DNA of 63,710 nt, filler included, from Asterionella formosa (lineage: Eukaryota): the NCBI GenBank assembly GCA_002256025.1. It is 22 parts of 22 records of this genome, joined end to end, with 100 filler letters (N's around TTAATTAATTAA, not from the genome) between each part and the next. Parts side by side here need not be neighbours in the genome. Positions count along the whole stretch, not along the records: positions 30,640 to 49,661 come from NKIB01003867.1; 21 more parts are not named here. The stretch is one strand, 5' to 3'. Below are positions 5,117-59,981 of the stretch, one piece after another. How positions within the stretch are numbered: the stretch's first letter is position 1; every line of letters starts with the position of its first letter. The notes under the pieces are model-generated. The model was not told the DNA's origin. It saw only the letters and a program-made list of their open reading frames with translations, and searched no databases. The position numbers were made by a program, and so were the translations under genes.

Positions 5117-8100
5117 GAGTGCCATGGATAAAGTCAATGTGGCGTCCTCTGGAAGAGGTTGATGCATGGGATGGAATGCCGCGGGAGGATAGAAGATCAG
5201 TGAGAGAGCATGTACGCAGGAAGAGGGCGATATCAGAATCTGACGCAAGAGAGTTTGCATCCCCCATCAAGAGAACCTCATGATTTTTGGCTGTAAGGGA
5301 AATAATGAATGTTTGGAAAGATTGAAGCATTGAGAGCCGTGGATTGGGGTTATTGTCTTTGTAATGTTCAATTAAGTGGGAATGCTGATGCTCATATGCT
5401 GTTTGTGGGCCTGTTCTTTGATTCTGACAGACTCGGTAAGCTGTTATAAACGTCAGGCGGTTATGAGAGTATGATCGGAGTGTCTGGTAGCTCCATCTGC
5501 CTAGAGGATCACTACCTGTGGCTAGAAATCTTCCGCTGCATCTGCCTGTGACGAATTGTAATGTGCCTCCAGCCTGGGATATAGTGGTCAAGGGAACAGC
5601 ATTGGGGGTGTGAGCTGTCGCTAAACGACGGTGGGGCCATCGGGCCTTGATTGAATCGGTGATAGATTGACGAGTGGAGTGATGGAACCAGTTGATATTG
5701 GTTTCAGAGAGACCAACTAGCTACTGTTGGGTGAAGTGATGCTATCTGGTTGAGATAGGTGAATCGTTCATAGTAATCTCTGTTAAAGTATTACAGTTCT
5801 GGAATAAGATGCGGACATGACAAGAGGAGGGCTCTTGTAGTGGATCTCCCCATGAGTTCTTTGGTTGAACAGTTGCACGAAGAGAAGTAAAGTCAGGAAC
5901 GGGTTGAAAGTGTTGGGAGATTCTTTGTGTCCATGATGCTTGGGATGGAGGCGGCGCCATCTGCTCACCAAGAGGAGCAGAATTGCCAAGCCTACTAATC
6001 TTCGCTGTTGTCTCCCCCAGTTATCATAGGTGTGGGTTGAGACGACTCTGCTGCTGAGATTTGTGAGACAGGGGGGTGGAAGTGAAAGACTAGTTGCTGG
6101 CGGATATTTTCAGAGATGGTATTGCCAAATTCAGAGGAATTGATTGTGCTTCATACCTCTCTTGTAATGAGTGCAGAGAGTTGAGGGAGTACTTCTTCCT
6201 GCAGGGAAACTATTTTGGTGGCTTCAATGGCTGCGCGGAGAGCGGAGAGGGACAAAGGCGGTGTTGAGTGCTCCAGGCTTATGTCTAATGCTGCGATATC
6301 AGTGGTGTCAGAAGTGGGAGTAGGGGGAAGAGGAACTTGAGTAGCAATATGAGTGGTCAGGGTGTCAACTTGGGCTTGAAGCTTTAATAATGTGGTGGTC
6401 AGTGATTGGAGCTTGGAGTTTGTGGTGGATTCAAATGCTGTGGATAGTGTGGTACTGGAAAGTGAAGGTGGAGAATTATACCATGGATTGGGGGTCAGGG
6501 CCGGATATGTTCTGTCAGAGGGATGAGGGTGATTGGATGAGTGGGCAGAGGGGGAAGGGAGGGGTCCTCTATGATTTCGGCGCCCTCTGCCGCCTTTACC
6601 ACAGCGTGAGACAGGTCGTGACCTATTGTGGGAGGTTGGGTTGGGGAGAGCCGGCGTGTCAGAAAGGCCATAGGGGTTGAAATCGAGAAGATGAGAGAGA
6701 GTTGTGTTGGAGTGAGAAAGGAGATCTTCCAATGTTTGAGTGGTGTGGTGGTGGTCGGGTGCCAGCCACACATCTTCGGGGGTCAAGGTTGGATAAATTT
6801 GTCTCAGAGTTGGAACAGAGTTTCGATAAGAGATTCTAGGTAGCTAACATTAGAATAGTGAGTGCAAAAAAAGAGTATAGATGGATTGGCTGGATCTGTT
6901 TCAATGCTACGGAGAAGATATTGGGAGCCAGGAGAGGGTTCGAGGAAGCTAAGAAGTGCGCCGCCTAAGGTTTCAAATGTGTCAGGAAAGACATGTGTGA
7001 GGGGAAGTACTAGACCAGTAATGCGGACTGCCTCTTCATTGGCTTGAAATTCTTGCTGCTCTTGCATCTTTTGAGCGTATGACTGGTCTGGTAAACCTAA
7101 AAAGTGTGGTGAAAGGAAAATCATGGTGCGTTGGAATGGGTACCTGGTAGGGAACTTCGACTGTTCATCAGGTAACAAGATTTCTTGGAGAAGACGACGT
7201 GCATTGGACTGATAGGGTGGGGAAGTGCAGATAACAATAGTATATGTGGAGATGGAGGGATAATGACCAGGGCCATCGACTTGTCTCCAAAGGCAGACAA
7301 AAGGGATTGCAATCTGTAGCTCTGCCAAAGCCATTGTATAGCGAGACGATTCATCTTTTTGGACGAGTATAGTAGCCAACCACAGTCAACCGGGACATCT
7401 CCATAAAATTGGTCGTGCCGCAATGTCAATTGAAGGTGGGAAGTGGTTACTGTAGTTAGAAGAGATTGAATGGGTTGACAGGTACAAAGATGAATTCGGC
7501 CTTTGACTACATGGTCTGGGAGGCAGCGTGCAACCACCACGGAGAAGAGACGAAAAATTGTTGAATCAGATAAATGATTGAAGCGAGGCAAGTGAAGTGG
7601 GTATTGGGGAGTCCCGAGTGATCTGCTTGTCAGGCTTTCCAGTGACAGAGAGTAAGAGAGCATAGCTATCATGGAAGAATATGGCAGTGAGGAGGGATCG
7701 GACTGTTGTTGCGATTTGATGAGAGGAATAATTGACTGGAAGTGGAGTGATCTGTGGGAGGGGAACACTGAAGAAGAGCCAGGCTTGAAGTCCCGAGTGA
7801 TCTGCTTGTCAGGTTTTCCAGTGACAGAGAGTAAGAGAGCATAGCTACCATGGAAGAATATGGCAGTGAGGAGGGATCGGACTGTTGTTGCGATTTGATC
7901 AGAGGAATAATTGACTGAAAGTGGAGTGATCTGTGGGAGGGGAACACTGAAGAAGAGCCAGGCTCGAAGGAATGAGGCTTCGGGAGGAGAGTTGGCAGTG
8001 CTGGGTGGAGGGAGAATAGAAGGGGAAGTAGCAGTAAATACAGTGCCACTAGTGGAGACAGCAGAGTTGCGCTTTGGAGCAGGATTGGGTGATGGATGGG

Positions 8101-42301: not shown

Positions 42302-44154
42302 TTAAAATGCCAAAACTTCGTCAATAGCGTGAATAATCCCATTCGACGCATCGATATCAGCATCAACGATAGAAGCAGAACCATTGAGCTCAACACCGAG
42401 AAAGAACCACAAGAAATATCGAACAGCGACCTTAATAGAAGATCCTTGCTTGAGAGTTTTCACATCTCCATTCTGAAGGTCGTGAAGAGCAACACGGCCC
42501 GAAACAATATGATAGAGAAGAATATCTTTGAGCGCTGCTGGATCAGCAAGGAGCCCGGTCAATGTCCCCTCACCAAGCTGGGAAAAAGCTGCTTCGGTGG
42601 GAGCGAAGATCGTGAAGGGACCATCTCCTTGCAATGCATCCGTTAGATTGGCAGCTTCGACCGCTGCTACGAGAGTGACAAGACCTTGAGCAGTGGCAGT
42701 GGCCAAAATATCTTGAGGGGGCATCAATACCTTATTAATAATGTGCACAACTCCGTTAGAAGCTTTGTTATCAGCATTCACGACTAAGCTTTCGCCGTTC
42801 AGAAGATAAAAGTTGGAGAACCACCATCGACTAACATCGACATTGATACTTGCTCCAGACAAGGTTTCCACACTTCCAGTCTCCAGGTCACTCGAAAAGA
42901 CGGCTCCACTGACGACATGATACTTGAGTATATTCGCGAGCTTGGTTGGGTCAGCAAGTAGTGCTGTCAAAGTTGCTTCTCCAAGCTCTGCAAAGGCTTC
43001 GTCGGTTGGTGCGAATACAGTGAATGGCCCGTTGCCGTTCAAAGTATCAACGAGGCCAGCAGCAGTGACGGCAGCGACAAGCGTCTTCAAGTTGTCATTG
43101 CTTACAGCAAGCTCAACAATAGTTGGATCAGCAGGACCAGCGTCAGACGGGGACAAGACAGAATCAATGACATGGATAACTCCGTTCGAAGCGAGGACGT
43201 CAGCTTTGATAATGTTGGTTCCTCCATTGAGAACTTTCGTCCAATGGAACCATCCTGCAAATGAAACAGTGATACTGCCTCCTTGAAGGGTGAAAATTCT
43301 TCCTTCCGTAAGCTCGTCATAAAATACAATGGTGTCGGGAATGACATGGTAGGTCAATATATTCTTGAGTGCCGTGGTGTTTTGAAGGAGAGCATCAATG
43401 GTTTCCTGACCTAGCTTCTGAAAAGCTTCATCAGTTGGTGCGAAGACGGTAATTGGTGAGGACGTTTTCAGGGTATCAACAATACCGGCAGCTTCGGCAG
43501 CTGCCAACAGAGTTTTAAAAATACCGGTTGAGCTAGCAACGTCGACAATATCCTTGGACATGAAATCAGGTAAGAGAATACTTTTACCAATGGCGTGAAT
43601 GACTCCATTACTAGCCTCAACATCAGCTAAGATGACAGGAGACTCGTTGATAGTGACTACACCATTAGAAACAGAGGCGTTAACACTCTCACCAAGCAGA
43701 AGTGTCGGGATCTTGTCACCGTCGCTAATATCTGCAGCTTTGACCACTCCAAGAGCAACATGGTAAAGTAAGGTCTTGGTGAGGTGTCTTTTAAATTCCT
43801 TGTTGGTGGTCAATGTGTCCAGTACCCCGGCGGGAAGGTTGGCAAATGCGTCGTTTGTCGGAGCGAAGACTAACAAAAGTAATAGGTTCACCGAAAGGGT
43901 GAGTTGTGATTCCTTTCTTATGACAACATAAAAGGCCTCATACCTCATGATGCAAACTCACCGGTGTACGAGCTGCACAAAAAGCTCTGGCAACGAAAAA
44001 GATAGTCAATTTGTGCAATCTCCAAAGCAGTAACAAGTGTGGAGAAGTTACCATTGCTCTTAGCAATGTCAAGGATGCTTGTGGTTCCTGCACCGAAGGC
44101 TGGTGAGCCAGCCAGTATAAAGGCAAAGCCTAATGCACGAAGAATAGATTTCAT
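42302..44154 (-). CDS. Secreted fasciclin protein with four FAS1 domains (~586 aa)
   Basis: Exons 44154-43962 and 43869-42302. Signal peptide; four T[VI]FAPT, [LK]YH and ASNG[VI][VI]H.I motif sets. Confidence 0.95.
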
Positions 44155-44952
44155 TCCGGCTCTTTTGCAAATACAACTCGTTCTGCTAACGACAACGCAT
44201 TGAATTTAGTGAGACTAATGATTGTTGATCAGGAAGGAACAAACGCTATCCAAGACTCAATTCCCTTTTGACAAGACCGCCTGCGTCAGTAATCTGGATG
44301 ATGTGACTATCATACATCATATGTAGTACGCATCTTTGGAAGCCTTGATTGTGCGAAGAAGTTCCGAATGATACGCTTCTACCGGTACTAAAATTGCATG
44401 CCATCATGTGTCAAAACGAATACGTCCTGCCGCTCTTGTGAAAAATTTAGCATGTCATTGGGGATGATTTGCACAACATACCCGTATCATTTAGCACCTC
44501 AGGTCTACCGTACGACCGGTACATATTTAAATGTGATGGTGATGGTTCCAGGTACCGTTATTCTCACCGAGTTCAACCTCACGCCCAGGCCTCCCCCGGA
44601 CCGGTACCTGCTACCTGGTACCTGGTACTAAGCAACCTTCTATTTGTTTCATTATACCGGTGCCACTGCTGTACGTACAGGTTGTTTATGCACGACGAAA
44701 TGATGACGACGACCAGCCGACGGAGAAAAGCGTGGCTGATGGGGACTGTTTGAAGCTGAAATAGCAGATCAGCCGTAAAGTACTTACTGGTACATGAATC
44801 ACTGTATCACATATATATATTGCAATAAACAAATAAAATACATGATTTTCCATTCATATTATAAAGTGAATTTATATATTTATGAGGGACATCAAATTTA
44901 CGCTCTCGCTCGAGGACTTGAAGAATCTCCAACACCATCGTCATAACCTTAT

Positions 44953-45157
44953 CAATCGAATCGAATCGAATCGAATCCAATCCAATCCAATCCAATCGAN
45001 NNNNNNNNNNNNNNNNNNNNNNNNNNNNNNNNNNNNNNNNNNNNNNNNNNNNNNNNNNNNNNNNNNNNNNNNNNNNNNNNNNNNNNNNNNNNNNNNNNNN
45101 NNNNNNNNNNNNNNCAATCGAATCCAATCCAATCCAATCCAATCGAACAATCGAATC
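44953..45157. repeat. Compound pentanucleotide microsatellite (AATCG)n/(AATCC)n spanning a gap
   Basis: Visible on both sides of the N-run, immediately upstream of ATG 45167. Confidence 0.9.
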
Positions 45158-45166
45158 AATGCAACA

Positions 45167-47116
45167 ATGCTGGCATCTTGGCTAGAACGAGGACTGGGCC
45201 AGATTTTGGCGCCTGATGTCAAGGTCGCAGAGCAACCAGAGCTGACGGAAGCAGCTTCGTCGTTCTGGACAATGGTAGCTCCCGACCCGAAATGGGAAGC
45301 ATCCGTGCATGGGGCATCTGTGCATGGGCCACCTGATATGCTCACTCCTGGTATCAACAAGCCAAATATAGCGAGGACACTGAGTGTGCCTCCGCAATCT
45401 GCTTTCCTCTCCCCGGCTCATGCTGCAATGCCCACCCAAGTCCGCTGTGTCCATTGCCACGCAATGACTCCTGTAAACCATGTTGACCCGTCCACTCCTG
45501 ATTATCATTCGATGCCGAATTCGTCGTCCGGGAAAGATCCAATCGACTTGCTGGACAGAAAAGTATTATCGGCTGCCAAAGAAACTGCTTTCAGTCTAGC
45601 GTCGCCTCCCAACGTTGTCGAATCGCGCAACAAGGTCTTCCGCCTCTGCGCCTCGTCAAAGCCCCTCAATGAGAAGCTTTTGTCAAGGCTTTCCAAGCTT
45701 CTGGAGAAGGACAATGCGCTGTTGCAAGCTAGGGCTGCGCATCTTGGAAGCTTGGTTCCTGATGGACTCACACCACTTATGGCATCGGCCTTTTGCAATC
45801 AACTTGAGGCTGCTCAAATTATAGTCAACATGGATGCTTCCACCAAGGACGACGTTGATTTGCAAGGACGCACTGCCTTACACATTGCCGCGGAAATGGG
45901 AGCCATGGATGTGGTTAAACTTTTGCTAGGGCCAGAAGGGCCTGAGGCGCCGCTAGATCTTACTGGGTACACTCCCTTCGGCCGGGCACTGACTTCCACC
46001 GTTTCGGCAGCACAACAATCTCAGCCACAATTGAAGCAAACTCTTTTCAGTCCAGGTGACAAAAGTGTTAGCGGGATATTTTCGCCACTGAAGCAACGAT
46101 CCAATTCTAGTTCCCTTCAGTTGGCGTATGGAACTGCTGAAATGCCGGGCTTTCGGGTTGTAATGGAAGACGCCATTGCGACGCATTCCTGGCCTGGTCA
46201 CTTGCTCTTGGGTGTTTGCGACGGGCACGGCGATCTGGGAAAGGTCAGCCATTTCGTGGCTACCAATATTGGAAAACTTATCAAAGAGCAGTCGTCAGAA
46301 TTAACGGCGATGGAAGACCGATGGATATCTGCTTGTTTGGAGTTGGACCAACAAATCAAGGACTCTGGATACAAAGGTGGATCTACAGCGGTATTTGCGT
46401 TGATTACTGAAACAACCATTGTGGTAGCCAATGTGGGTGATAGTAGGTGCATTTTAGTGCAATCGGCACCAGCGGTCATTCCTGAATTGACTGAGGCTCC
46501 TGCTGCCGAAGGCTCGGCCGAGAGACCCTGGATGGCGACCCCGCAATCGGAAGGCACCCTAGTTGACGATGCTGACGTTTGCGTTGTGGCCATGTCAGAA
46601 GACCATAAACCAAACCTACCCGAAGAAATATCCCGCATTGAAGCCGCTGGTTTGTCCGTCTTTGCCGAAACCTTTGCTGTCGACAATGGAAATCAGGAAA
46701 CCATTTACAAGGTCAAACGGTCCGAAAAAGAACGACTAGCTGTTTCGCGAGCCTTTGGAGATTTTGAATACAAGTCCAACACGACATTGGCTGCCGAAGA
46801 ACAAGCTGTATGCTGTGTTCCCGAGCTCAAGGTGCATCGACGTGACAACGATCATGATCAGTATCTCGTTTTGGCATGTGATGGTATCTGGGATGTCATG
46901 ACAAACGACGAAGTGGGAACGTTTGTAGTGAACCAAATGGAAATGGCAACAGATGCCGACGATGTTCTACCAAAAGTTGGAGATTTGCTGCTCAATGAGT
47001 GCTTGAATCGAGGGTCAACCGACAACATGTCGTGTGTAATTATCGCTCTCGGAAAATCCACAGCCAAGGCTGGAGTGAGTAGTGGAGTAATGGTGGGCAA
47101 GACTTTGAACTTTTAG
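45167..47116 (+). CDS. Ankyrin-repeat + PP2C (PPM) protein phosphatase
   Basis: GLTPLMAS, GRTALHIAA and GYTPFG ankyrin repeats. PP2C motifs MEDA, CDGHG, GSTA, ANVGDSR, DHKP, LAVSRAFGD, LACDGIWD, GSTDN. Confidence 0.93.
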   Translation: MLASWLERGLGQILAPDVKVAEQPELTEAASSFWTMVAPDPKWEASVHGASVHGPPDMLTPGINKPNIARTLSVPPQSAFLSPAHAAMPTQVRCVHCHAMTPVNHVDPSTPDYHSMPNSSSGKDPIDLLDRKVLSAAKETAFSLASPPNVVESRNKVFRLCASSKPLNEKLLSRLSKLLEKDNALLQARAAHLGSLVPDGLTPLMASAFCNQLEAAQIIVNMDASTKDDVDLQGRTALHIAAEMGAMDVVKLLLGPEGPEAPLDLTGYTPFGRALTSTVSAAQQSQPQLKQTLFSPGDKSVSGIFSPLKQRSNSSSLQLAYGTAEMPGFRVVMEDAIATHSWPGHLLLGVCDGHGDLGKVSHFVATNIGKLIKEQSSELTAMEDRWISACLELDQQIKDSGYKGGSTAVFALITETTIVVANVGDSRCILVQSAPAVIPELTEAPAAEGSAERPWMATPQSEGTLVDDADVCVVAMSEDHKPNLPEEISRIEAAGLSVFAETFAVDNGNQETIYKVKRSEKERLAVSRAFGDFEYKSNTTLAAEEQAVCCVPELKVHRRDNDHDQYLVLACDGIWDVMTNDEVGTFVVNQMEMATDADDVLPKVGDLLLNECLNRGSTDNMSCVIIALGKSTAKAGVSSGVMVGKTLNF

Positions 47117-47465
47117 CTCACCTTCAAAAGCTAATTATAGTTTGCCACTTGATCCCTTGTTGTGAGTGGAGTAGGTTTTGAATAAACGAGCAATGCTAGA
47201 ACCATGGTACTTCATGATTCCACCATAATACAATGTTGAGAGGCGCTTTGAATCAATTCTAAGTAAGGGGATTTCATGGTTTTGGCAGTAAATTAGTCAA
47301 CTGTTTGCAATTCACTTAACTGAAAGTAGAGAATGTAGTACCGAGTAGGTGCGCACTCAGAAACGTGGTCAGTCAGAAAACCATTCCGAATACCCAACTA
47401 GGTCTTGGAAGTAAACTGTGTTTGGACCTCATTAACTTTAGCCAAAATCAAATAGCGAAACACAA

Positions 47466-49544
47466 TCAAAGGAAAAGCTTGGGGTGACGATCTCGGACTG
47501 GGCTCACACCAGCCAAAGCAGGAAGCCTGCTGAATGTTTGGGCGTTGTTGTCAACTGGCACCCCCATTAATGTTTTCTTAACACGTTCAATATCAGCAGC
47601 CAAATAGTTCATCTCCATATTCTTGTGTCGCACGAGGACGGCTTTACCATTTCTGCCCTTAAGAATGTTGCATTCCCTGGGCTGAGGGTCAGCCCTACAA
47701 TAGACGGTTTCCCACGCTCGTGGGGGGCGTTGATATCGTTTCATGGAAGATCCATCAAAATACTTGAGTGCCAGTGCTCCTGATTTGGTGGGAATTATTC
47801 GCTGGTGAATTTTGCGGCTAATCTCGGCCTCGTTGGCATACCACTGCCCGGAGCAAGCGATTGCCTTGCAGGCAATCATGTAACTCCATGGATGAGAAAA
47901 GTCACTGTGGGTCTCTTCGTATAGATGCAAAGTTGAAAAGCCAACCTTGACGACAGTATCAAAGAGGTCGGCTCTGTTCGAATAAACTCCGAATTGCTCG
48001 CCGAACTCTGAGTTTGTTGGCGATCCACCAAGTTGCATGACAAGGATGCCATCATCGTTCAATGCTTCCTGCAAACCGCGCCAAAAGGACTGATCTTTGT
48101 AGAGACCCTCTGCAAAATCCACCTTATCTTCTGGATCTAGAGCATCCATAATGATTAAGTCAAATCTTTCTTCGCCTTCGATAGTCTTCGATTCCCCAAA
48201 TCGGTTCATAAACCACCCAAACGCATCTTCACACAACAAGTCCGTTCGATCATCGTCGAAACAACTCTCGTGCGTGCCGAAGTCCGCACAATTGTTCAAT
48301 GCTGGCAAAAAGTCTTTCGCCGCTTGTACCATCACGGCATCAATCTCAATCATTTTACATAGGTTCACCGCTTTGTGTTTCAACACTTCGCGAAGGGTTG
48401 CTCCTTCGCCACCTCCAATAACGGCCACCCGTTTGGGATTAGGATGAGCAAACATGGCAGGGTGCACCAGAGCTTCGTGGTAGGCTTCGTCTCCTCTACT
48501 GGTTGACTGCAGAACACCGTCCAAGAACAATACACGGTTTGGCTTGTACCATTCGGCGTGGCCGTGCTCGTAAGTGCCCTCCACGAGCGACTGTTCGTAG
48601 CCAATGACATGGGAGACACGAGAGTCGACAAAGTCCCAAACATCAATTTCTTGAAAGATGGATTTTGCGTGGCCAATCGGTGTCTTGTAAAAAATGTAAT
48701 TCTTCAAATCGAGATAGAGATCGGCTATATCAGACTCGTATGTCCTCCACCGTGCGAGCCTTTCTCGCTGGCCTCGAAGGAGATGGTTCCAGCGGACCCG
48801 GGGTTTGCCAATAGCAAAATGTTTATGCATCAATGCCACCAAATCCAAGATGTGGCCATCAACGGCGGCAAAAAAATCCAAAAAGAGCATTCCTCGAGAT
48901 GGAAAGGTTCTAACGGCGAAGTGATGACCGTCTTCAAGGATTGCTGCACAATGAACATTCACATTGATTTGACAGTGCATGGATTTCATGGCTACATCAC
49001 GATCAACGGAAGCTTCCCATACAAGAGCTAACATGGCAGTTTGTATGGCATCCTTGTCCTTAAGGAATCCTTGGTCCACAAATTCCATATCCATCATGAC
49101 GGAAATAGCTGTTGGTTGTTCCGGCTCGCAGTCCTCCTTGTCGTCGTGGTCGTCGTACTGGCCAAAAGCATCTGTTTCAAATAGTACTTCTTCCATGGAA
49201 ATAGAAAAACTTTGTTCATTCTCAAAGGAGGAAACAAGGATCGTTTGACGTCGAAGCACCGTTGCTTCCTCGAGCATCTGGTTGAGCTGTTGTGGTACCG
49301 CGTGGCCGTACAAGTGCAGTTGTTGCTTACAGTGCCGTCCGGCATAGAAGGATAAGGAGACTCCACAGATCAAATAAGAGATAAACAACAATGGAGATAT
49401 TCCACTTTTCCGTAGATTCACAGCATTAGACGGATCATCAGCGACGATACTCGTTTTAAAAATCGTTTCAGGACCAACGCTTGACACCGGCGACAAATTC
49501 GGCGAAACAGAGGACAATTCTGGAACAGGACCTTCTTTGCTCAT
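47466..49544 (-). CDS. Membrane-anchored degenerate AdoMetDC + spermidine-synthase-like aminopropyltransferase fusion (candidate long-chain polyamine synthase)
   Basis: TM LLFISYLICGVSLSFYAG; SpeD-like block ~49110-48770; SpeE motifs SIFQEI, LDGVLQST, YHEALVHPAM, IGGGEGATLREV, MIEID, IIMDALDP. Confidence 0.88.
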   Translation of the reverse strand: MSKEGPVPELSSVSPNLSPVSSVGPETIFKTSIVADDPSNAVNLRKSGISPLLFISYLICGVSLSFYAGRHCKQQLHLYGHAVPQQLNQMLEEATVLRRQTILVSSFENEQSFSISMEEVLFETDAFGQYDDHDDKEDCEPEQPTAISVMMDMEFVDQGFLKDKDAIQTAMLALVWEASVDRDVAMKSMHCQINVNVHCAAILEDGHHFAVRTFPSRGMLFLDFFAAVDGHILDLVALMHKHFAIGKPRVRWNHLLRGQRERLARWRTYESDIADLYLDLKNYIFYKTPIGHAKSIFQEIDVWDFVDSRVSHVIGYEQSLVEGTYEHGHAEWYKPNRVLFLDGVLQSTSRGDEAYHEALVHPAMFAHPNPKRVAVIGGGEGATLREVLKHKAVNLCKMIEIDAVMVQAAKDFLPALNNCADFGTHESCFDDDRTDLLCEDAFGWFMNRFGESKTIEGEERFDLIIMDALDPEDKVDFAEGLYKDQSFWRGLQEALNDDGILVMQLGGSPTNSEFGEQFGVYSNRADLFDTVVKVGFSTLHLYEETHSDFSHPWSYMIACKAIACSGQWYANEAEISRKIHQRIIPTKSGALALKYFDGSSMKRYQRPPRAWETVYCRADPQPRECNILKGRNGKAVLVRHKNMEMNYLAADIERVKKTLMGVPVDNNAQTFSRLPALAGVSPVRDRHPKLFL

Positions 49545-49761
49545 TGTGATGTCGAATGGATGCTGTAGCACTACTTATGAATTGATTTTGGCATGGGTAT
49601 GAACCAACCAAATCCAGAGATGTCAACAATAGTCTTCAGGTCGTTCCCCTTTCCCTTTCTTNNNNNNNNNNNNNNNNNNNNNNNNNNNNNNNNNNNNNNN
49701 NNNNNTTAATTAATTAANNNNNNNNNNNNNNNNNNNNNNNNNNNNNNNNNNNNNNNNNNNN

Positions 49762-50456
49762 CGACGGGTGATCGGGTAGCAGAGAAAGCGAAGGTTGCAG
49801 AAGAAGTGGAGCTCTTGGCCAGAGAACGTGGCATTCCAGTCGCTATGACCGACAAGGGATCATTGAATGCTCTTGCTGGAAATCGTCCTCATCAAGGTTA
49901 CGTATTGCGCTGCGGTAAACTTGATTTTGAAAATCTTCCGCGACTTCCAATGGAGGCAGACTCTCCCAAGTTGTGGCTTGTTCTGGATGAAGTAGTAGAT
50001 CCACAAAACTTGGGTGCACTTTTGCGATCTGCATATTTCATGGGCGGAAATAGAATTGGTGTCTTGGTATGCGCAAAGAACTCGGCCCCTCCCAGCCCTG
50101 TAGTCAGTGCAGCGAGTGCGGGAGCATTGGAACTTATAAAAGTTTATTCAACGTCCAATCTCCCAAGAACTCTTAATTCTGCCAAGGAAAGTGGCTTTCG
50201 TGTTATTGGTGCGTCGTCCTCTGTCCCTAATTCTGACGCAGAAGTGTACGATTTGAACGAGTTACCATTGGATGATCGAAGGACTATTTTGGTGCTTGGA
50301 AGTGAAGGGTATGGGCTTAGAACACTAGTGGCCAAGGCATGCACTGATTTTGTTCAGATCCCTGGTATGGATAATACTGGAGTAGATTCATTGAATGTAA
50401 GTGTTACCGGAGGTATTTTGTTGTGGCACCTTATGAATAAGGCTCGCAGCACATAG
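49762..50456 (+). CDS. SpoU/TrmH-family rRNA 2'-O-methyltransferase (MRM1/RlmB-like), 5' truncated
   Basis: HQGYVL, LDEVVDPQNLGALLRSA, LVLGSEGYGL, IPG..VDSLNVSV. Confidence 0.92.
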
Positions 50457-52317: not shown

Positions 52318-53495
52318 GATACTTGGCGTATTGCTATTCCTACATCATTATTGGATCCTATTATTAATTGGTATCATCAGATGTTAGCTCATGTGGGTAT
52401 GACAAGATTAAATGCTACAATTGCTACACATTTTTATCACCCTATATTAAAAACAAGAGTGGAACATATTGTAAGAGTATGTGAAGCATGTCAACGTACA
52501 AAATTACCTGGTACTGGTTTTGGTGAACTTCCACCCAGGAATGCATTATTATTACCATGGTCAGAAGTCGCAGTAGATCTAATTGGTCCATGGAAGATAA
52601 CAGTGGCTGCTCAAACGATTGAATTTCGTGCTCTAACTTGTATTGACACAGTCACCAATTTAGCAGAAATTTCGCGTATCATCAACAAAACATCAGAATA
52701 TATTGCAATGAAATTTGAAAATGATTGGTTAGCCAGATATCCCCGTCCAGAACGTTGTATACATGACAATGGAGGTGAATTTACTGGTGCTCCTTTCTTA
52801 CACATGTTAGTATTGAATGGAATCAAAGATGTGACTACCACAGTAAAGAATCCACAAGCAAATGCTATCTGTGAACGTTTCCATCAATCTATCAGCAATA
52901 GTCTACGAGTTATGTTAAAGGCTCATCCTCCAATCAATGAATTTCAAGCCCAAAATATTGTGGATACATGTTTTGCAGCTGCGTCATATGCAGCTCGAGC
53001 TACTTTTCATAGTATATTACGTATTTCACCAGGAGCATGGGTTTTTCAACGTGATATGATATTAAATATTCCTTTGATTACAGATTTACAATTAATACAT
53101 CAACGTCGACAGGTGATAATTGACGAACGTTTACGTCGTGCAAATTTCCGTCGTCGATCTTATGATTACAAAGTGGGTGACGAGATTTTAATATTATTGG
53201 ATAATCCTACTACTTTGGATGATCGTGGACGAGGTCCTTATACTATTATTCAAGTACATGCCAATGGTACAGTTACTTTTCAACGCACTATGCATATTAC
53301 CGAACGAATTAATATTCGTCGTATCAAACCTTTTCAAAGGTAAAAGGTTTTCCCTCAAGTGTGGGAGAGTGAGCAATCCTGCACATCGATACAGATATAT
53401 ATAGAGTTGGGGTTATGTCAAATATATCGGAATTCAATAATGAGAGAACTCGACTAACACCCATTCTATACTTTGATGTCAGTTCAGGAAATGAG
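52318..53495 (+). mobile_element. Ty3/Gypsy integrase, PPT and start of the 3' LTR (copy 1)
   Basis: H..H..C..C zinc motif, VAVDLIGPW, HDNGGEF, PQANAICER, GPY. Stop at 53343; GGGAGAG then TG at 53370. Confidence 0.95.
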
Positions 53496-53595: not shown

Positions 53596-54773
53596 GATAC
53601 TTGGCGTATTGCTATTCCTACATCATTATTGGATCCTATTATTAATTGGTATCATCAGATGTTAGCTCATGTGGGTATGACAAGATTAAATGCTACAATT
53701 GCTACACATTTTTATCACCCTATATTAAAAACAAGAGTGGAACATATTGTAAGAGTATGTGAAGCATGTCAACGTACAAAATTACCTGGTACTGGTTTTG
53801 GTGAACTTCCACCCAGGAATGCATTATTATTACCATGGTCAGAAGTCGCAGTAGATCTAATTGGTCCATGGAAGATAACAGTGGCTGCTCAAACGATTGA
53901 ATTTCGTGCTCTAACTTGTATTGACACAGTCACCAATTTAGCAGAAATTTCACGTATCATCAATAAAACATCAGAATATATTGCAATGAAATTTGAAAAT
54001 GATTGGTTAGCCAGATATCCCCGTCCAGAACGTTGTATACATGACAATGGAGGTGAATTTACTGGTGCTCCTTTCTTACACATGTTAGTATTGAATGGAA
54101 TCAAAGATGTGACTACCACAGTAAAGAATCCACAAGCAAATGCTATCTGTGAACGTTTCCATCAATCTATCAGCAATAGTCTACGAGTTATGTTAAAGGC
54201 TCATCCTCCAATCAATGAATTTCAAGCCCAAAATATTGTGGATACATGTTTTGCAACTGCGTCATATGCAGCTCGAGCTACTATTCATAGTATATTACGT
54301 ATTTCACCAGGAGCATGGGTTTTCCAACGTGATATGATATTAAATATTCCTTTGATTACAGATTTACAATTAATACATCAACGTCGACAGGTGATAATTG
54401 ACGAACGTTTACGTCGTGCAAATTTCCGTCGTCGATCTTATGATTACAAAGTGGGTGACGAGATTTTAATATTATTGGATAATCCTACTACTTTGGATGA
54501 TCGTGGACGAGGTCCTTATACTATTATTCAAGTACATGCCAATGGTACAGTTACTTTTCAACGCACTATGCATATTACCGAACGAATTAATATTCGTCGT
54601 ATCAAACCTTTTCATAGGTAAAAGGTTTTCCCTCAAGTGTGGGAGAGTGAGCAATCCTGCACATCGATACAGATATATATAGAGTTGGGGTTATGTCAAA
54701 TATATCGGAATTCAATAATGAGAGAACTCGACTAACACCCATTCTATACTTTGATGTCAGTTCAGGAAATGAG
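53596..54773 (+). mobile_element. Ty3/Gypsy integrase, PPT and start of the 3' LTR (copy 2)
   Basis: Near-identical to 52318-53495 (3 amino-acid differences). Stop at 54621; LTR from 54648. Confidence 0.95.
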
Positions 54774-58704: not shown

Positions 58705-59881
58705 AGGGTCGTTCTTATCATTTTTTTTCGTGTATCACGGAATTTGAATTTTTTTGAAAATGTATCAGCAACGGTAACTCGATTTGAACTGAATTTCATT
58801 CATTCCAAAAGTGTCACTGTATCACTAATTTGTGATCACATTGTATCATGGAGTAAAATGAATCTTCAACGGCAACAGGCTGGCGAAGATCATGTGTATA
58901 TCCCTCCAGAATATAATGATGGTCTTGATATCAAGCAACAACAAAATATAATTACCGGGAAACTAAATATAATATTAAAAACACACATTTGCATGAATCA
59001 TGTCGTCGCCATTTGATTTACTTGATGATAATGACGATGACAGTAGTGATCTTGATTTCTTCTTCCTCTGTCATTTAACTAAGGAAGCAGAGGAAAAAGA
59101 ACACTCATCCAAACGACAAAGGCGACGCTGTAAACGGCAGCTTCAGTCATCTGAACGACGACGACAACGAAGGCACAAGTGGCACCACGAAAGAATCTCC
59201 TGGCAATCACATGTCGAGAAACTCAATCACGAGATTGCTTTCGAGAAGACATACAGAATGTCACACAGAGCATTCAAAAAACTCACCTCCATGCTGGAAA
59301 TTCAGATTGCAGGGAATTATTCCAAATGTGGCACTTCTGAGCCCATAATTCCCGAAATTGTGGTAGCCATTGGTTTGCGATGGCTGGCTGGTGGCAGTTA
59401 CATCGACATTCGTCATGCCTACGGTTGTAGCATTGCTTCACTTTATCGATGTCGTGATTTGTTCATTGATGCTGTACTAAACTGTGAAGAACTCGAAATT
59501 ATTTTTCCAAAAGAAAAAGAAGAATTTATCAAATTGGCTTCCAGCTTTGAATGCAAAAGCTCAGAGGGCATGATGAGAGGATGTGTTGGTGCTATTGACG
59601 GCTTCCTTGCCACCATCAACCGCCCGACTATAGTTGAAAGTGGCAACAACCCTGGTTCATTTTTTTCCGGTCACTACATGACTTATGGAATCAATGTCCA
59701 GGCTGTTTGTGATGCTGACTCAAGATTTATTTATTTTGGTGTGATTGCACCGGGAAAATGCAGTGACCAAGTAGCTTTTGAAAAAACTTCCATTTTCGAT
59801 CAAGTTGCAGCATTCAACACAGGTTTTTATCTGGTCGGCGATGCAGCTTACACATTGTCTGATGTAATGCTTGTTCCCTTT
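58705..59881 (+). mobile_element. PIF/Harbinger transposase (DDE_Tnp_4); ORF starts at 59000, 3' truncated
   Basis: FEKTYRMS, LRWLAGGSY, GCVGAIDG, INVQAVCD..SRF, PGKCSD, LVGDAAY. Confidence 0.93.
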
Positions 59882-59981
59882 NNNNNNNNNNNNNNNNNNN
59901 NNNNNNNNNNNNNNNNNNNNNNNNNTTAATTAATTAANNNNNNNNNNNNNNNNNNNNNNNNNNNNNNNNNNNNNNNNNNNN

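Follow-up and report, generated by a model that had tools for sequence, protein, structure and literature searches.

The stretch of DNA analysed here (the window) comprises 63,710 nucleotides of the diatom Asterionella formosa (NCBI GenBank assembly GCA_002256025.1), joined end to end from 22 parts, and the part derived from NKIB01003867.1 contains a gene for a putative membrane-anchored aminopropyltransferase. The predicted protein (the query) is composed of an N-terminal segment, a hydrophobic helix, a linker, a domain that resembles S-adenosylmethionine decarboxylase (AdoMetDC), an aminopropyltransferase, a family-specific extension, and a C-terminal tail (Table 1). Judged from the sequence, the gene stems from a bacterially derived family of AdoMetDC-aminopropyltransferase(-SET) fusions, and its AdoMetDC domain appears to have kept the class-1b fold and lost the chemistry. 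A sequence-only reading of the locus had described a membrane anchor, an acidic linker, a SpeD-like block in which ESH reads EDGH, HTWP reads RTFP, and TC reads AA, intact SpeE motifs, and no evident SET domain; each of these features is borne out by the analyses presented below.

Table 1. Coordinates of the aminopropyltransferase gene, of the regions it encodes, and of the two neighbouring genes (positions along the window; residues of the predicted protein).
Feature	Position	Strand	Remarks
Whole coding sequence	47466..49544	(-)	692 codons + stop, intron-free; single open reading frame from first ATG
N-terminal segment, residues 1-48	49401..49544	(-)	Poorly conserved, predicted disordered
Hydrophobic helix, residues 49-70	49335..49400	(-)	Single membrane anchor or signal anchor, predicted
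Juxtamembrane linker, residues 71-143	49116..49334	(-)	Acidic toward its end (residues 120-143)
Putative catalytically dead class-1b AdoMetDC-fold domain, residues 144-258	48771..49115	(-)	Pfam, fold, alignment
Degenerate self-cleavage site E204-D205-G206-H207	48924..48935	(-)	E-S-H in active relatives; here no Ser, one extra residue
R212-T-F-P215 replacing H-T-W-P	48900..48911	(-)	His68 equivalent gone
A226-A227 replacing T-C	48864..48869	(-)	Cys83 equivalent gone
Hinge + N-terminal beta domain of the aminopropyltransferase, residues 259-335	48540..48770	(-)	Strands 284-294, 299-307
Aminopropyltransferase catalytic (Rossmann-type) domain, residues 336-560	47865..48539	(-)	Motifs apparently intact
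Family-specific extension, residues 561-626	47667..47864	(-)	Holds conserved Cys616, Cys625
Fast-evolving tail, residues 627-692	47469..47666	(-)	Mostly disordered; ends G-V-S-P-V-R-D-R-H-P-K-L-F-L
Terminal motif G-V-S-P-V-R-D-R-H-P-K-L-F-L, residues 679-692	47469-47510	(-)	Conserved across clade
Ankyrin-PP2C phosphatase gene	44882-47116	(+)	Converges on the aminopropyltransferase gene; run of N inside the open reading frame
SpoU-type RNA methylase gene	49845-50456	(+)	Divergent; beyond runs of N, i.e. past the end of the NKIB01003867.1 part (49,661)

The AdoMetDC-like domain is recognised by a weak profile match and by its fold. The Pfam profile AdoMet_dc (PF02675) matches residues 149-248 with an E value of 4.4e-5 and 24.2 bits, which is marginally below the 25-bit gathering cut-off; the same profile scores 77-83 bits in active paralogues versus 19-29 bits in the clade of dead relatives to which the query belongs (see below), and a sequence-only search of the PDB with the dead domain returned no matches at E<=10. 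An alignment of 105 family members served to model the structure of residues 135-300 (predicted local distance difference test, pLDDT, 86), and the model was searched against 48,161 representative chains of solved structure. The closest chains are two bacterial class-1b enzymes, namely the Thermotoga maritima AdoMetDC 1vr7 (Z 13.9; root-mean-square deviation 2.8 over 115 aligned residues of 120) and the Aquifex AdoMetDC 2iii (Z 13.4). They are followed by eukaryotic AdoMetDCs, human spermine synthase 3c6k (Z 9.2), and the trypanosome prozyme heterodimer 5tvf (Z 8.4), and unrelated folds reach Z 7.5 at most. Foldseek gives the same picture, with TM scores of 0.78-0.79 and E values of 1.8e-6 to 5.7e-6 for the 1vr7 and 2iii enzymes and an E value of 1.2e-4 for 3c6k. 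In the ESM Atlas, the top scores (0.75) also belong to AdoMetDC clusters; these scores lie under the level that counts and serve as a lead only.

The residues on which AdoMetDC chemistry depends are replaced in the query. Active diatom paralogues share the pattern VLLE-SH(I/V)xFHTWP...LDLFTCG; over its LLE-SH..FHTWP...LFTCG core the query reads LEDGHHFAVRTFP...FFAAV, and over the longer stretch it reads AILEDGHHFAVRTFP...LDFFAAV. Part of the active paralogue P0016 can be aligned gap-free to residues 4-86 of the T. maritima enzyme 1tlu (E 2.8e-16), and 1tmi, deposited as an S63A 'non-processing mutant', has Ala where ESH has Ser. Through these alignments, Ser63, His68, and Cys83 would correspond to D205-G206, R212, and A227 of the query. 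In T. maritima AdoMetDC, His68 acts in processing and Cys83 is the proton donor. Because the cleavage turn lacks a Ser, a pyruvoyl group cannot be formed by the canonical route. The query also lacks the His found in the N-terminal G-x-H-L strand. Taken together, the model and the alignments indicate that residues 144-258 form a dead AdoMetDC domain, with the class-1b fold kept and the chemistry lost.

Several residues of the domain, by contrast with the catalytic ones, are retained: D152, D157, F160, L161, C191, C199, and P215 are invariant and common to active enzymes, and D/E-G stands at the old cleavage turn throughout the clade. Such residues, together with the conservation of the domain as a whole, would be expected if the dead pocket still bound SAM (S-adenosylmethionine), its decarboxylated form (dcSAM), a growing polyamine chain, or a silaffin lysine, and thus acted as a sensor, a chain-length ruler, or a dock. 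However, all three catalytic positions and the G-x-H-L His are gone, and a precedent for a module of this kind was not found in the literature searched; a ligand-binding role is considered improbable. A chain-length ruler and the modification of silaffin lysines had been suggested in the sequence-only reading, as had dependence on, or regulation of, an active partner.

The aminopropyltransferase that follows the dead domain appears intact in its motifs. Pfam PF01564 scores 107.5 bits against a gathering cut-off of 22.9, the best sequence matches in the PDB are 7xif (E 1.5e-32) and 1uir (E 1.1e-30), and Foldseek retrieves 1uir with an E value of 4.6e-21. Twenty columns are invariant in 116 family sequences, including Q346, S347, H356, E357, G377-G378-G379-E380, D402, D467, and P471, and D470 is nearly so; the Gly-rich loop and D-x-x-D-P have their counterparts at the aligned positions of 7xif and 1uir. 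In aminopropyltransferases, the Gly-rich loop binds dcSAM, and D-x-x-D-P is the catalytic motif. Scores against the bacterial SpeE equivalogs fall below their cut-offs (150 versus 260 bits for NF002010; 135.3 versus 249.55 for TIGR00417). NCBIfam and PDB alignments begin near residues 326-337. Upstream of this point, residues 259-335 are 75-84% identical among orthologues, and the two strands of the N-terminal beta domain are modelled with a pLDDT of 89-96. Downstream of the catalytic domain, the family-specific extension is equally well modelled (pLDDT 91-97) and 74-77% identical among orthologues; W568, R582, D597, Y604, P607, C616, P622, and C625 are invariant or nearly so.

Cysteine pairs recur along the folded part of the protein. 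C191/C199, C419/C428, and C616/C625 are invariant or nearly invariant across 116 family members, and two of the pairs share an x8 spacing. C419 and C428 flank an 8-residue insertion that is not present in the solved bacterial and archaeal enzymes. The three pairs could form disulfides, as in a lumenal enzyme, or a metal site.

The part of the protein that precedes the dead domain is dominated by a predicted membrane anchor. Residues 1-46 have a pLDDT below 50. The Kyte-Doolittle mean over 19 residues peaks at 1.79 (residues 48-66), residues 49-70 are the sole strongly hydrophobic stretch outside the folded core, and AlphaFold2 places a helix at residues 51-80, with a pLDDT of 92-94 over residues 51-70. 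A hydrophobic segment lies ahead of the AdoMetDC domain in 86 of the 99 full-length family rows and thus appears to be a family trait. The linker behind it contains 10 D/E versus 1 K/R in its 24 C-terminal residues (120-143) and falls below a pLDDT of 50 over residues 81-139. Within the linker, positions 49172-49244 (residues 101-124) encode a clade-specific conserved stretch, R-Q-T-x-L-V-S-S ... I-T-E-E-V-x-F-E ... F-G-Q-Y, which is modelled with low confidence as two strands; active paralogues have another conserved motif there. The proposal that the enzyme resides in the secretory pathway, made in the sequence-only reading, is not established by the charges that flank the helix: among the 86 rows, the N-terminal side is more positive in 39, the C-terminal side in 34, and 13 are tied. 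In the query, the charges are 0 and +2, respectively, and the more positive C-terminal flank points to a cytosolic location of the C-terminal side.

The C-terminal tail bears on the ancestry of the gene. The 692-residue protein gives no Pfam match at E<=1 to the SET domain (PF00856), which is marked by NHxC and C-terminal Tyr motifs. The pLDDT of the tail is 45-58 over residues 631-680 and returns to 84 over residues 681-690, which suggests that the last ten residues dock on the folded core. In an hhalign comparison, the 10 tails of the wider dead clade, each of 118-128 residues, matched those of SET-bearing active paralogues with a probability of 96% (E 4.8e-9, 49 columns); the wider clade thus has a degenerate SET domain, in which the NH of the NHxC motif is missing. 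The orthogroup of the query aligns to the wider-clade tails with a probability of 66% over 14 columns, at SPVRDRHPKLF, and stops right after this sequence, whereas its direct comparison with SET tails gives 10-23% over 14-17 columns. Only the terminal SPVRDRHPKLF aligns to SET-bearing tails, with a probability of 10-67% depending on the rows chosen. The case for a SET remnant is built on the wider clade, because the orthogroup of the query alone gives the low values just mentioned; with this in mind, the tail is probably a remnant of a degenerate SET domain. Descent of the lineage from a three-domain AdoMetDC-transferase-SET fusion, both flanking domains of which have decayed, is moderately supported. 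Motifs of the S/N-P-V-x-E/D-R type also end some SET-less active paralogues (P0079, P0117).

The coding sequence itself is supported by independent records. A database protein (P0002) is of equal length and 99% identical to the 692-residue open reading frame (ORF), four orthologues are 68-71% identical to it, and close relatives with source-given names are diatom proteins without exception. Contigs from polyA-selected RNA libraries of lake water, which may contain DNA, cover the ORF end to end and without joints in more than one study. In particular, 4541-nt contigs in libraries X1 and X4 cover 47200-49655 without a joint, and the ORF is therefore read as free of introns. In run X6, parts of the ORF are uncovered. 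In a run of another study, one contig stops at 47340 and the next starts at 47439, just past the stop codon, which fits separate transcripts for the aminopropyltransferase gene and its convergent neighbour. An environmental variant, X7, is 95-99% alike to the gene in the window; three bases are inserted in frame at 49148, within the acidic linker, and many substitutions occur as well. Among the differences listed, 10 of 12 in residues 263-609 are synonymous, and 10 of 12 in residues 626-672 are non-synonymous. The one locus obtained from a metagenome scan for DNA of orthologues, L001, is a weak match (43% identity over residues 413-650).

Loss of AdoMetDC function is widespread among relatives of the query. 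The family set consisted of the 121 best homologues, 106 of which have an AdoMetDC-like domain; the 15 without it were dropped from the tree, which was calculated with FastTree on the transferase region only. The full catalytic motif is present in 78 of the 106 domain-bearing homologues and missing in 28. The query falls inside a clade of 11 rows (support 98), all 11 of which are dead, and in an earlier tree the sister group of this clade consists of 12 active fusions. About six changes of state are needed on the tree to account for the dead rows, and at least three of them are imposed by strongly supported branches. Other dead lineages have different lesions, such as DEGH...IRTWP...FTFG, or KSH with A-S for T-C, and some of them keep a SET domain. 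Moreover, a search with the dead domain, which covered 1.84 billion representatives (50% identity), found 111 proteins at E<=0.001; approximately 12 of them have the altered site of the query together with the one-residue insertion, and the next rows are active. Sequence comparisons thus indicate that the AdoMetDC function was lost repeatedly among diatom fusions and that the gene is a typical member of an uncharacterised diatom family, not an oddity. The label 'variant' applied to it in the sequence-only reading is consequently too strong.

The same data bear on the idea that the domain is a decaying relic, functionless and kept because its removal would disturb folding or targeting. The domain is less conserved among the four orthologues than the transferase (66-71% versus 85-87% identity); the drop in Pfam score from active paralogues to the clade, and the failure of P0122 alone to find a PDB match by sequence, point in the same direction. 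However, every one of the 11 clade members, including those with an overall identity of only about 45%, retains the same altered site within a confidently folded domain, and the clade rows seemingly without an AdoMetDC domain turned out to be 5'-truncated gene models, not true losses. The domain is also far better conserved than the flanking disordered parts (linker, 33-48%; N-terminus, 15-21%), and the tail lies between them at 52-59%. Mere decay is thus regarded as having only a slight chance of being the explanation.

A structural role of the domain is suggested by its predicted self-association. For residues 135-300, the predicted homodimer scores 0.68 versus 0.00 for the best of three controls; in the calibration of this mark, 21 of 30 proteins solved as one-chain pairs reached it and none of 23 single-chain proteins did, and for eukaryotic proteins the figure was 17 of 29, but only one of the seven without an older solved relative. 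At least 58% of the contacts agree between runs, and the pLDDT of the partner is at least 66. The predicted interface is formed by alternate residues on every strand, i.e., by the face of the beta-sheet.

It may be proposed that the dead domain is a dimerisation scaffold for the aminopropyltransferase, as is the N-terminal domain of animal spermine synthase. In the sub-clade of the query, substitution of the cleavage Ser, of the His that acts in processing, and of the Cys that donates the proton leaves the AdoMetDC domain unable to form the pyruvoyl cofactor; the domain keeps the class-1b fold and the pairing face of the beta-sheet and would hold two transferases together. The dcSAM would come from other proteins, either active fusion paralogues or ordinary AdoMetDC, and the enzyme would add aminopropyl units to polyamine acceptors. 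The scaffold role is favoured because the domain is conserved in the clade, because a homodimer is predicted, and because spermine synthase provides a precedent. What the data show is the layout of the protein, its fold, the replaced residues, the preserved transferase motifs, conservation within the clade, and coverage by RNA libraries. How the domain acts in dimers, the supply of dcSAM from outside, the acceptor, and a contribution to long-chain polyamine or silaffin chemistry are inferred, and we give about even chances to the whole proposal, that is, a membrane-anchored diatom aminopropyltransferase with a dead AdoMetDC domain as its dimerisation scaffold and dcSAM supplied from elsewhere.

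Several points weigh against this scaffold proposal. The modelled fold is partly informed by homology, because the underlying alignment includes active paralogues, and the homodimer may pass the test through the memory of the model, since structures of AdoMetDC and spermine synthase dimers are available. Such a prediction expresses likeness rather than binding. Moreover, conservation within the clade does not differ significantly between interface positions and the rest of the domain (0.47 versus 0.39; Mann-Whitney p = 0.22), and the same interface could equally serve a heterodimer with an active paralogue. The library contigs give neither strand nor expression level and do not prove transcription. 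The single 4541-nt contig, found in two polyA lake-water libraries, extends approximately 2 kb beyond 47200 into the convergent PP2C gene, which may reflect an overlap of the 3' ends or the presence of DNA in the libraries. Finally, among the listed differences of the variant X7 (26 more lie beyond those listed), none falls in residues 144-258.

The possible heterodimer leads to a prozyme-like alternative, in which the partner of the dead domain is an active AdoMetDC domain, carried by a paralogous fusion in the same membrane, and the dead domain activates or tunes dcSAM production within a hetero-oligomeric polyamine synthase. Active sites of class-1b AdoMetDC sit at the dimer interface, and the predicted pairing face of the query is the sheet face that bears the former active-site positions. 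Active fusions with the same layout (membrane helix, linker, AdoMetDC, transferase) are abundant, as the motif counts above show, the dead clade has an active sister group, and the Trypanosoma brucei AdoMetDC/prozyme heterodimer is among the fold matches. On the other hand, the prozyme known so far is a member of the eukaryotic AdoMetDC class rather than of class 1b, and the homodimer of the query passes the test unaided. Such a partnership is unlikely, though it deserves to be kept in mind. The more specific idea that a class-1b 'prozyme' pairs through the sheet face with an active paralogue, so that diatom polyamine synthases would be membrane-bound hetero-oligomers, is somewhat less likely again. 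If it were true, the mixture of live and dead subunits would set the supply of dcSAM and hence the chain length of polyamines and species-specific silica patterns.

The surroundings of the gene offer no second enzyme of this type: of the 24 ORFs of at least 150 amino acids in the window, 14 were chosen for comparison with Pfam, and none of these 14 was another aminopropyltransferase. Runs of N are present upstream of the gene at 49663-49705 and 49718-49761. Two genes away, a 548-amino-acid ORF (42302-43948, minus strand) contains four fasciclin domains (E 1.6e-128) and likely encodes a secreted or cell-surface adhesion protein. Two plus-strand ORFs of 320 amino acids each, 1.3 kb apart (52381-53343 and 53659-54621), have equal scores to the integrase zinc-binding H2C2 domain and are probably duplicated retrotransposon fragments. 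Further along the plus strand, an ORF at 59000-59929 contains a DDE_Tnp_4 (Harbinger-type) transposase domain. Positions 6001-8000 differ from the rest of the window in their GC (guanine-cytosine) skew (0.398) and GC content (0.483).

Long-chain polyamines shape diatom silica, and, to our knowledge, none of the enzymes that make them has been characterised, nor has any member of the diatom fusion family been characterised biochemically. The abstract of the 2011 paper by Michael reportedly mentions diatom fusions with a catalytically dead AdoMetDC already; the literature searched contained no paper on dead AdoMetDC domains in diatom fusions and no functional test of them. A long-chain polyamine role is proposed in the literature for the family only and may extend to the query by analogy. 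About a quarter of the sampled fusions (28/106) possess a conserved but dead AdoMetDC domain that keeps its pairing face, which offers a concrete idea of assembly: either homodimers like those of spermine synthase, or mixed complexes with active paralogues. The value of the gene lies in its being a clean example, free of introns, represented in RNA libraries, and with a confident fold; it is not a new kind of system.

The closest known systems are the diatom AdoMetDC-aminopropyltransferase(-SET) fusions (Michael 2011, FEBS Lett 585:2627, as cited in passages of PMC12803844, PMC6356823, PMC3820600, and PMC12029483), which, in the relevant passage of PMC12803844 (December 2025), are still listed among the proteins in need of study. 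The query shares with them the order of domains, the N-terminal hydrophobic anchor, and 34-47% identity, and it nests inside the family on the tree; it differs in the absence of the AdoMetDC catalytic residues and in the reduction of SET to a short terminal motif. Bacterial class-1b AdoMetDCs (1tlu/1vr7, 2iii) have the same fold over nearly the whole chain, whereas the query is only 15-17% identical to them, has no equivalents of Ser63, His68, and Cys83, and carries one residue more at the cleavage turn. The transferase is matched best, in sequence and in fold, by the enzymes of Thermus thermophilus (1uir/3anx) and Pyrobaculum calidifontis (7xif), with Foldseek TM scores of 0.75-0.82 and the GGGEGATLRE and D-x-x-D-P motifs in common with the query in alignments of 1uir and 7xif. 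These enzymes are stand-alone and soluble, whereas the query adds the insertion between C419 and C428 and a 130-residue C-terminal extension. The trypanosomatid prozyme (5tvf, 5tvm) is likewise a dead AdoMetDC paralogue that acts through pairing with a partner; however, it belongs to the two-lobed eukaryotic class, stands alone without a transferase, and pairs as a heterodimer.

Animal spermine synthase (SMS) is the closest precedent by analogy with the modelled protein, and the predicted homodimer fits it; this enzyme was missed in the sequence-only reading. According to the passage on it in PMC12803844, it arose from a bacterial AdoMetDC-aminopropyltransferase fusion and lost the AdoMetDC function, and the domain is needed for dimer formation and activity. 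SMS (3c6k) and the query both combine a dead class-1b AdoMetDC-like N-terminal domain with a bacterial-type transferase, and Foldseek aligns 425 columns of the full query model to 3c6k; the sequence match is marginal (E 0.008) and limited to the transferase part (residues 337-422). In contrast to the query, SMS is soluble and has neither a membrane anchor, nor an acidic linker, nor a C-terminal extension. Common descent with the animal spermine synthase clade is not indicated, the nearest relatives of the query being active diatom fusions, and because the query groups with these, its loss of AdoMetDC function appears to be independent of that in animal SMS. The diatom proteins would therefore have arrived at the architecture of spermine synthase by a second and independent path.

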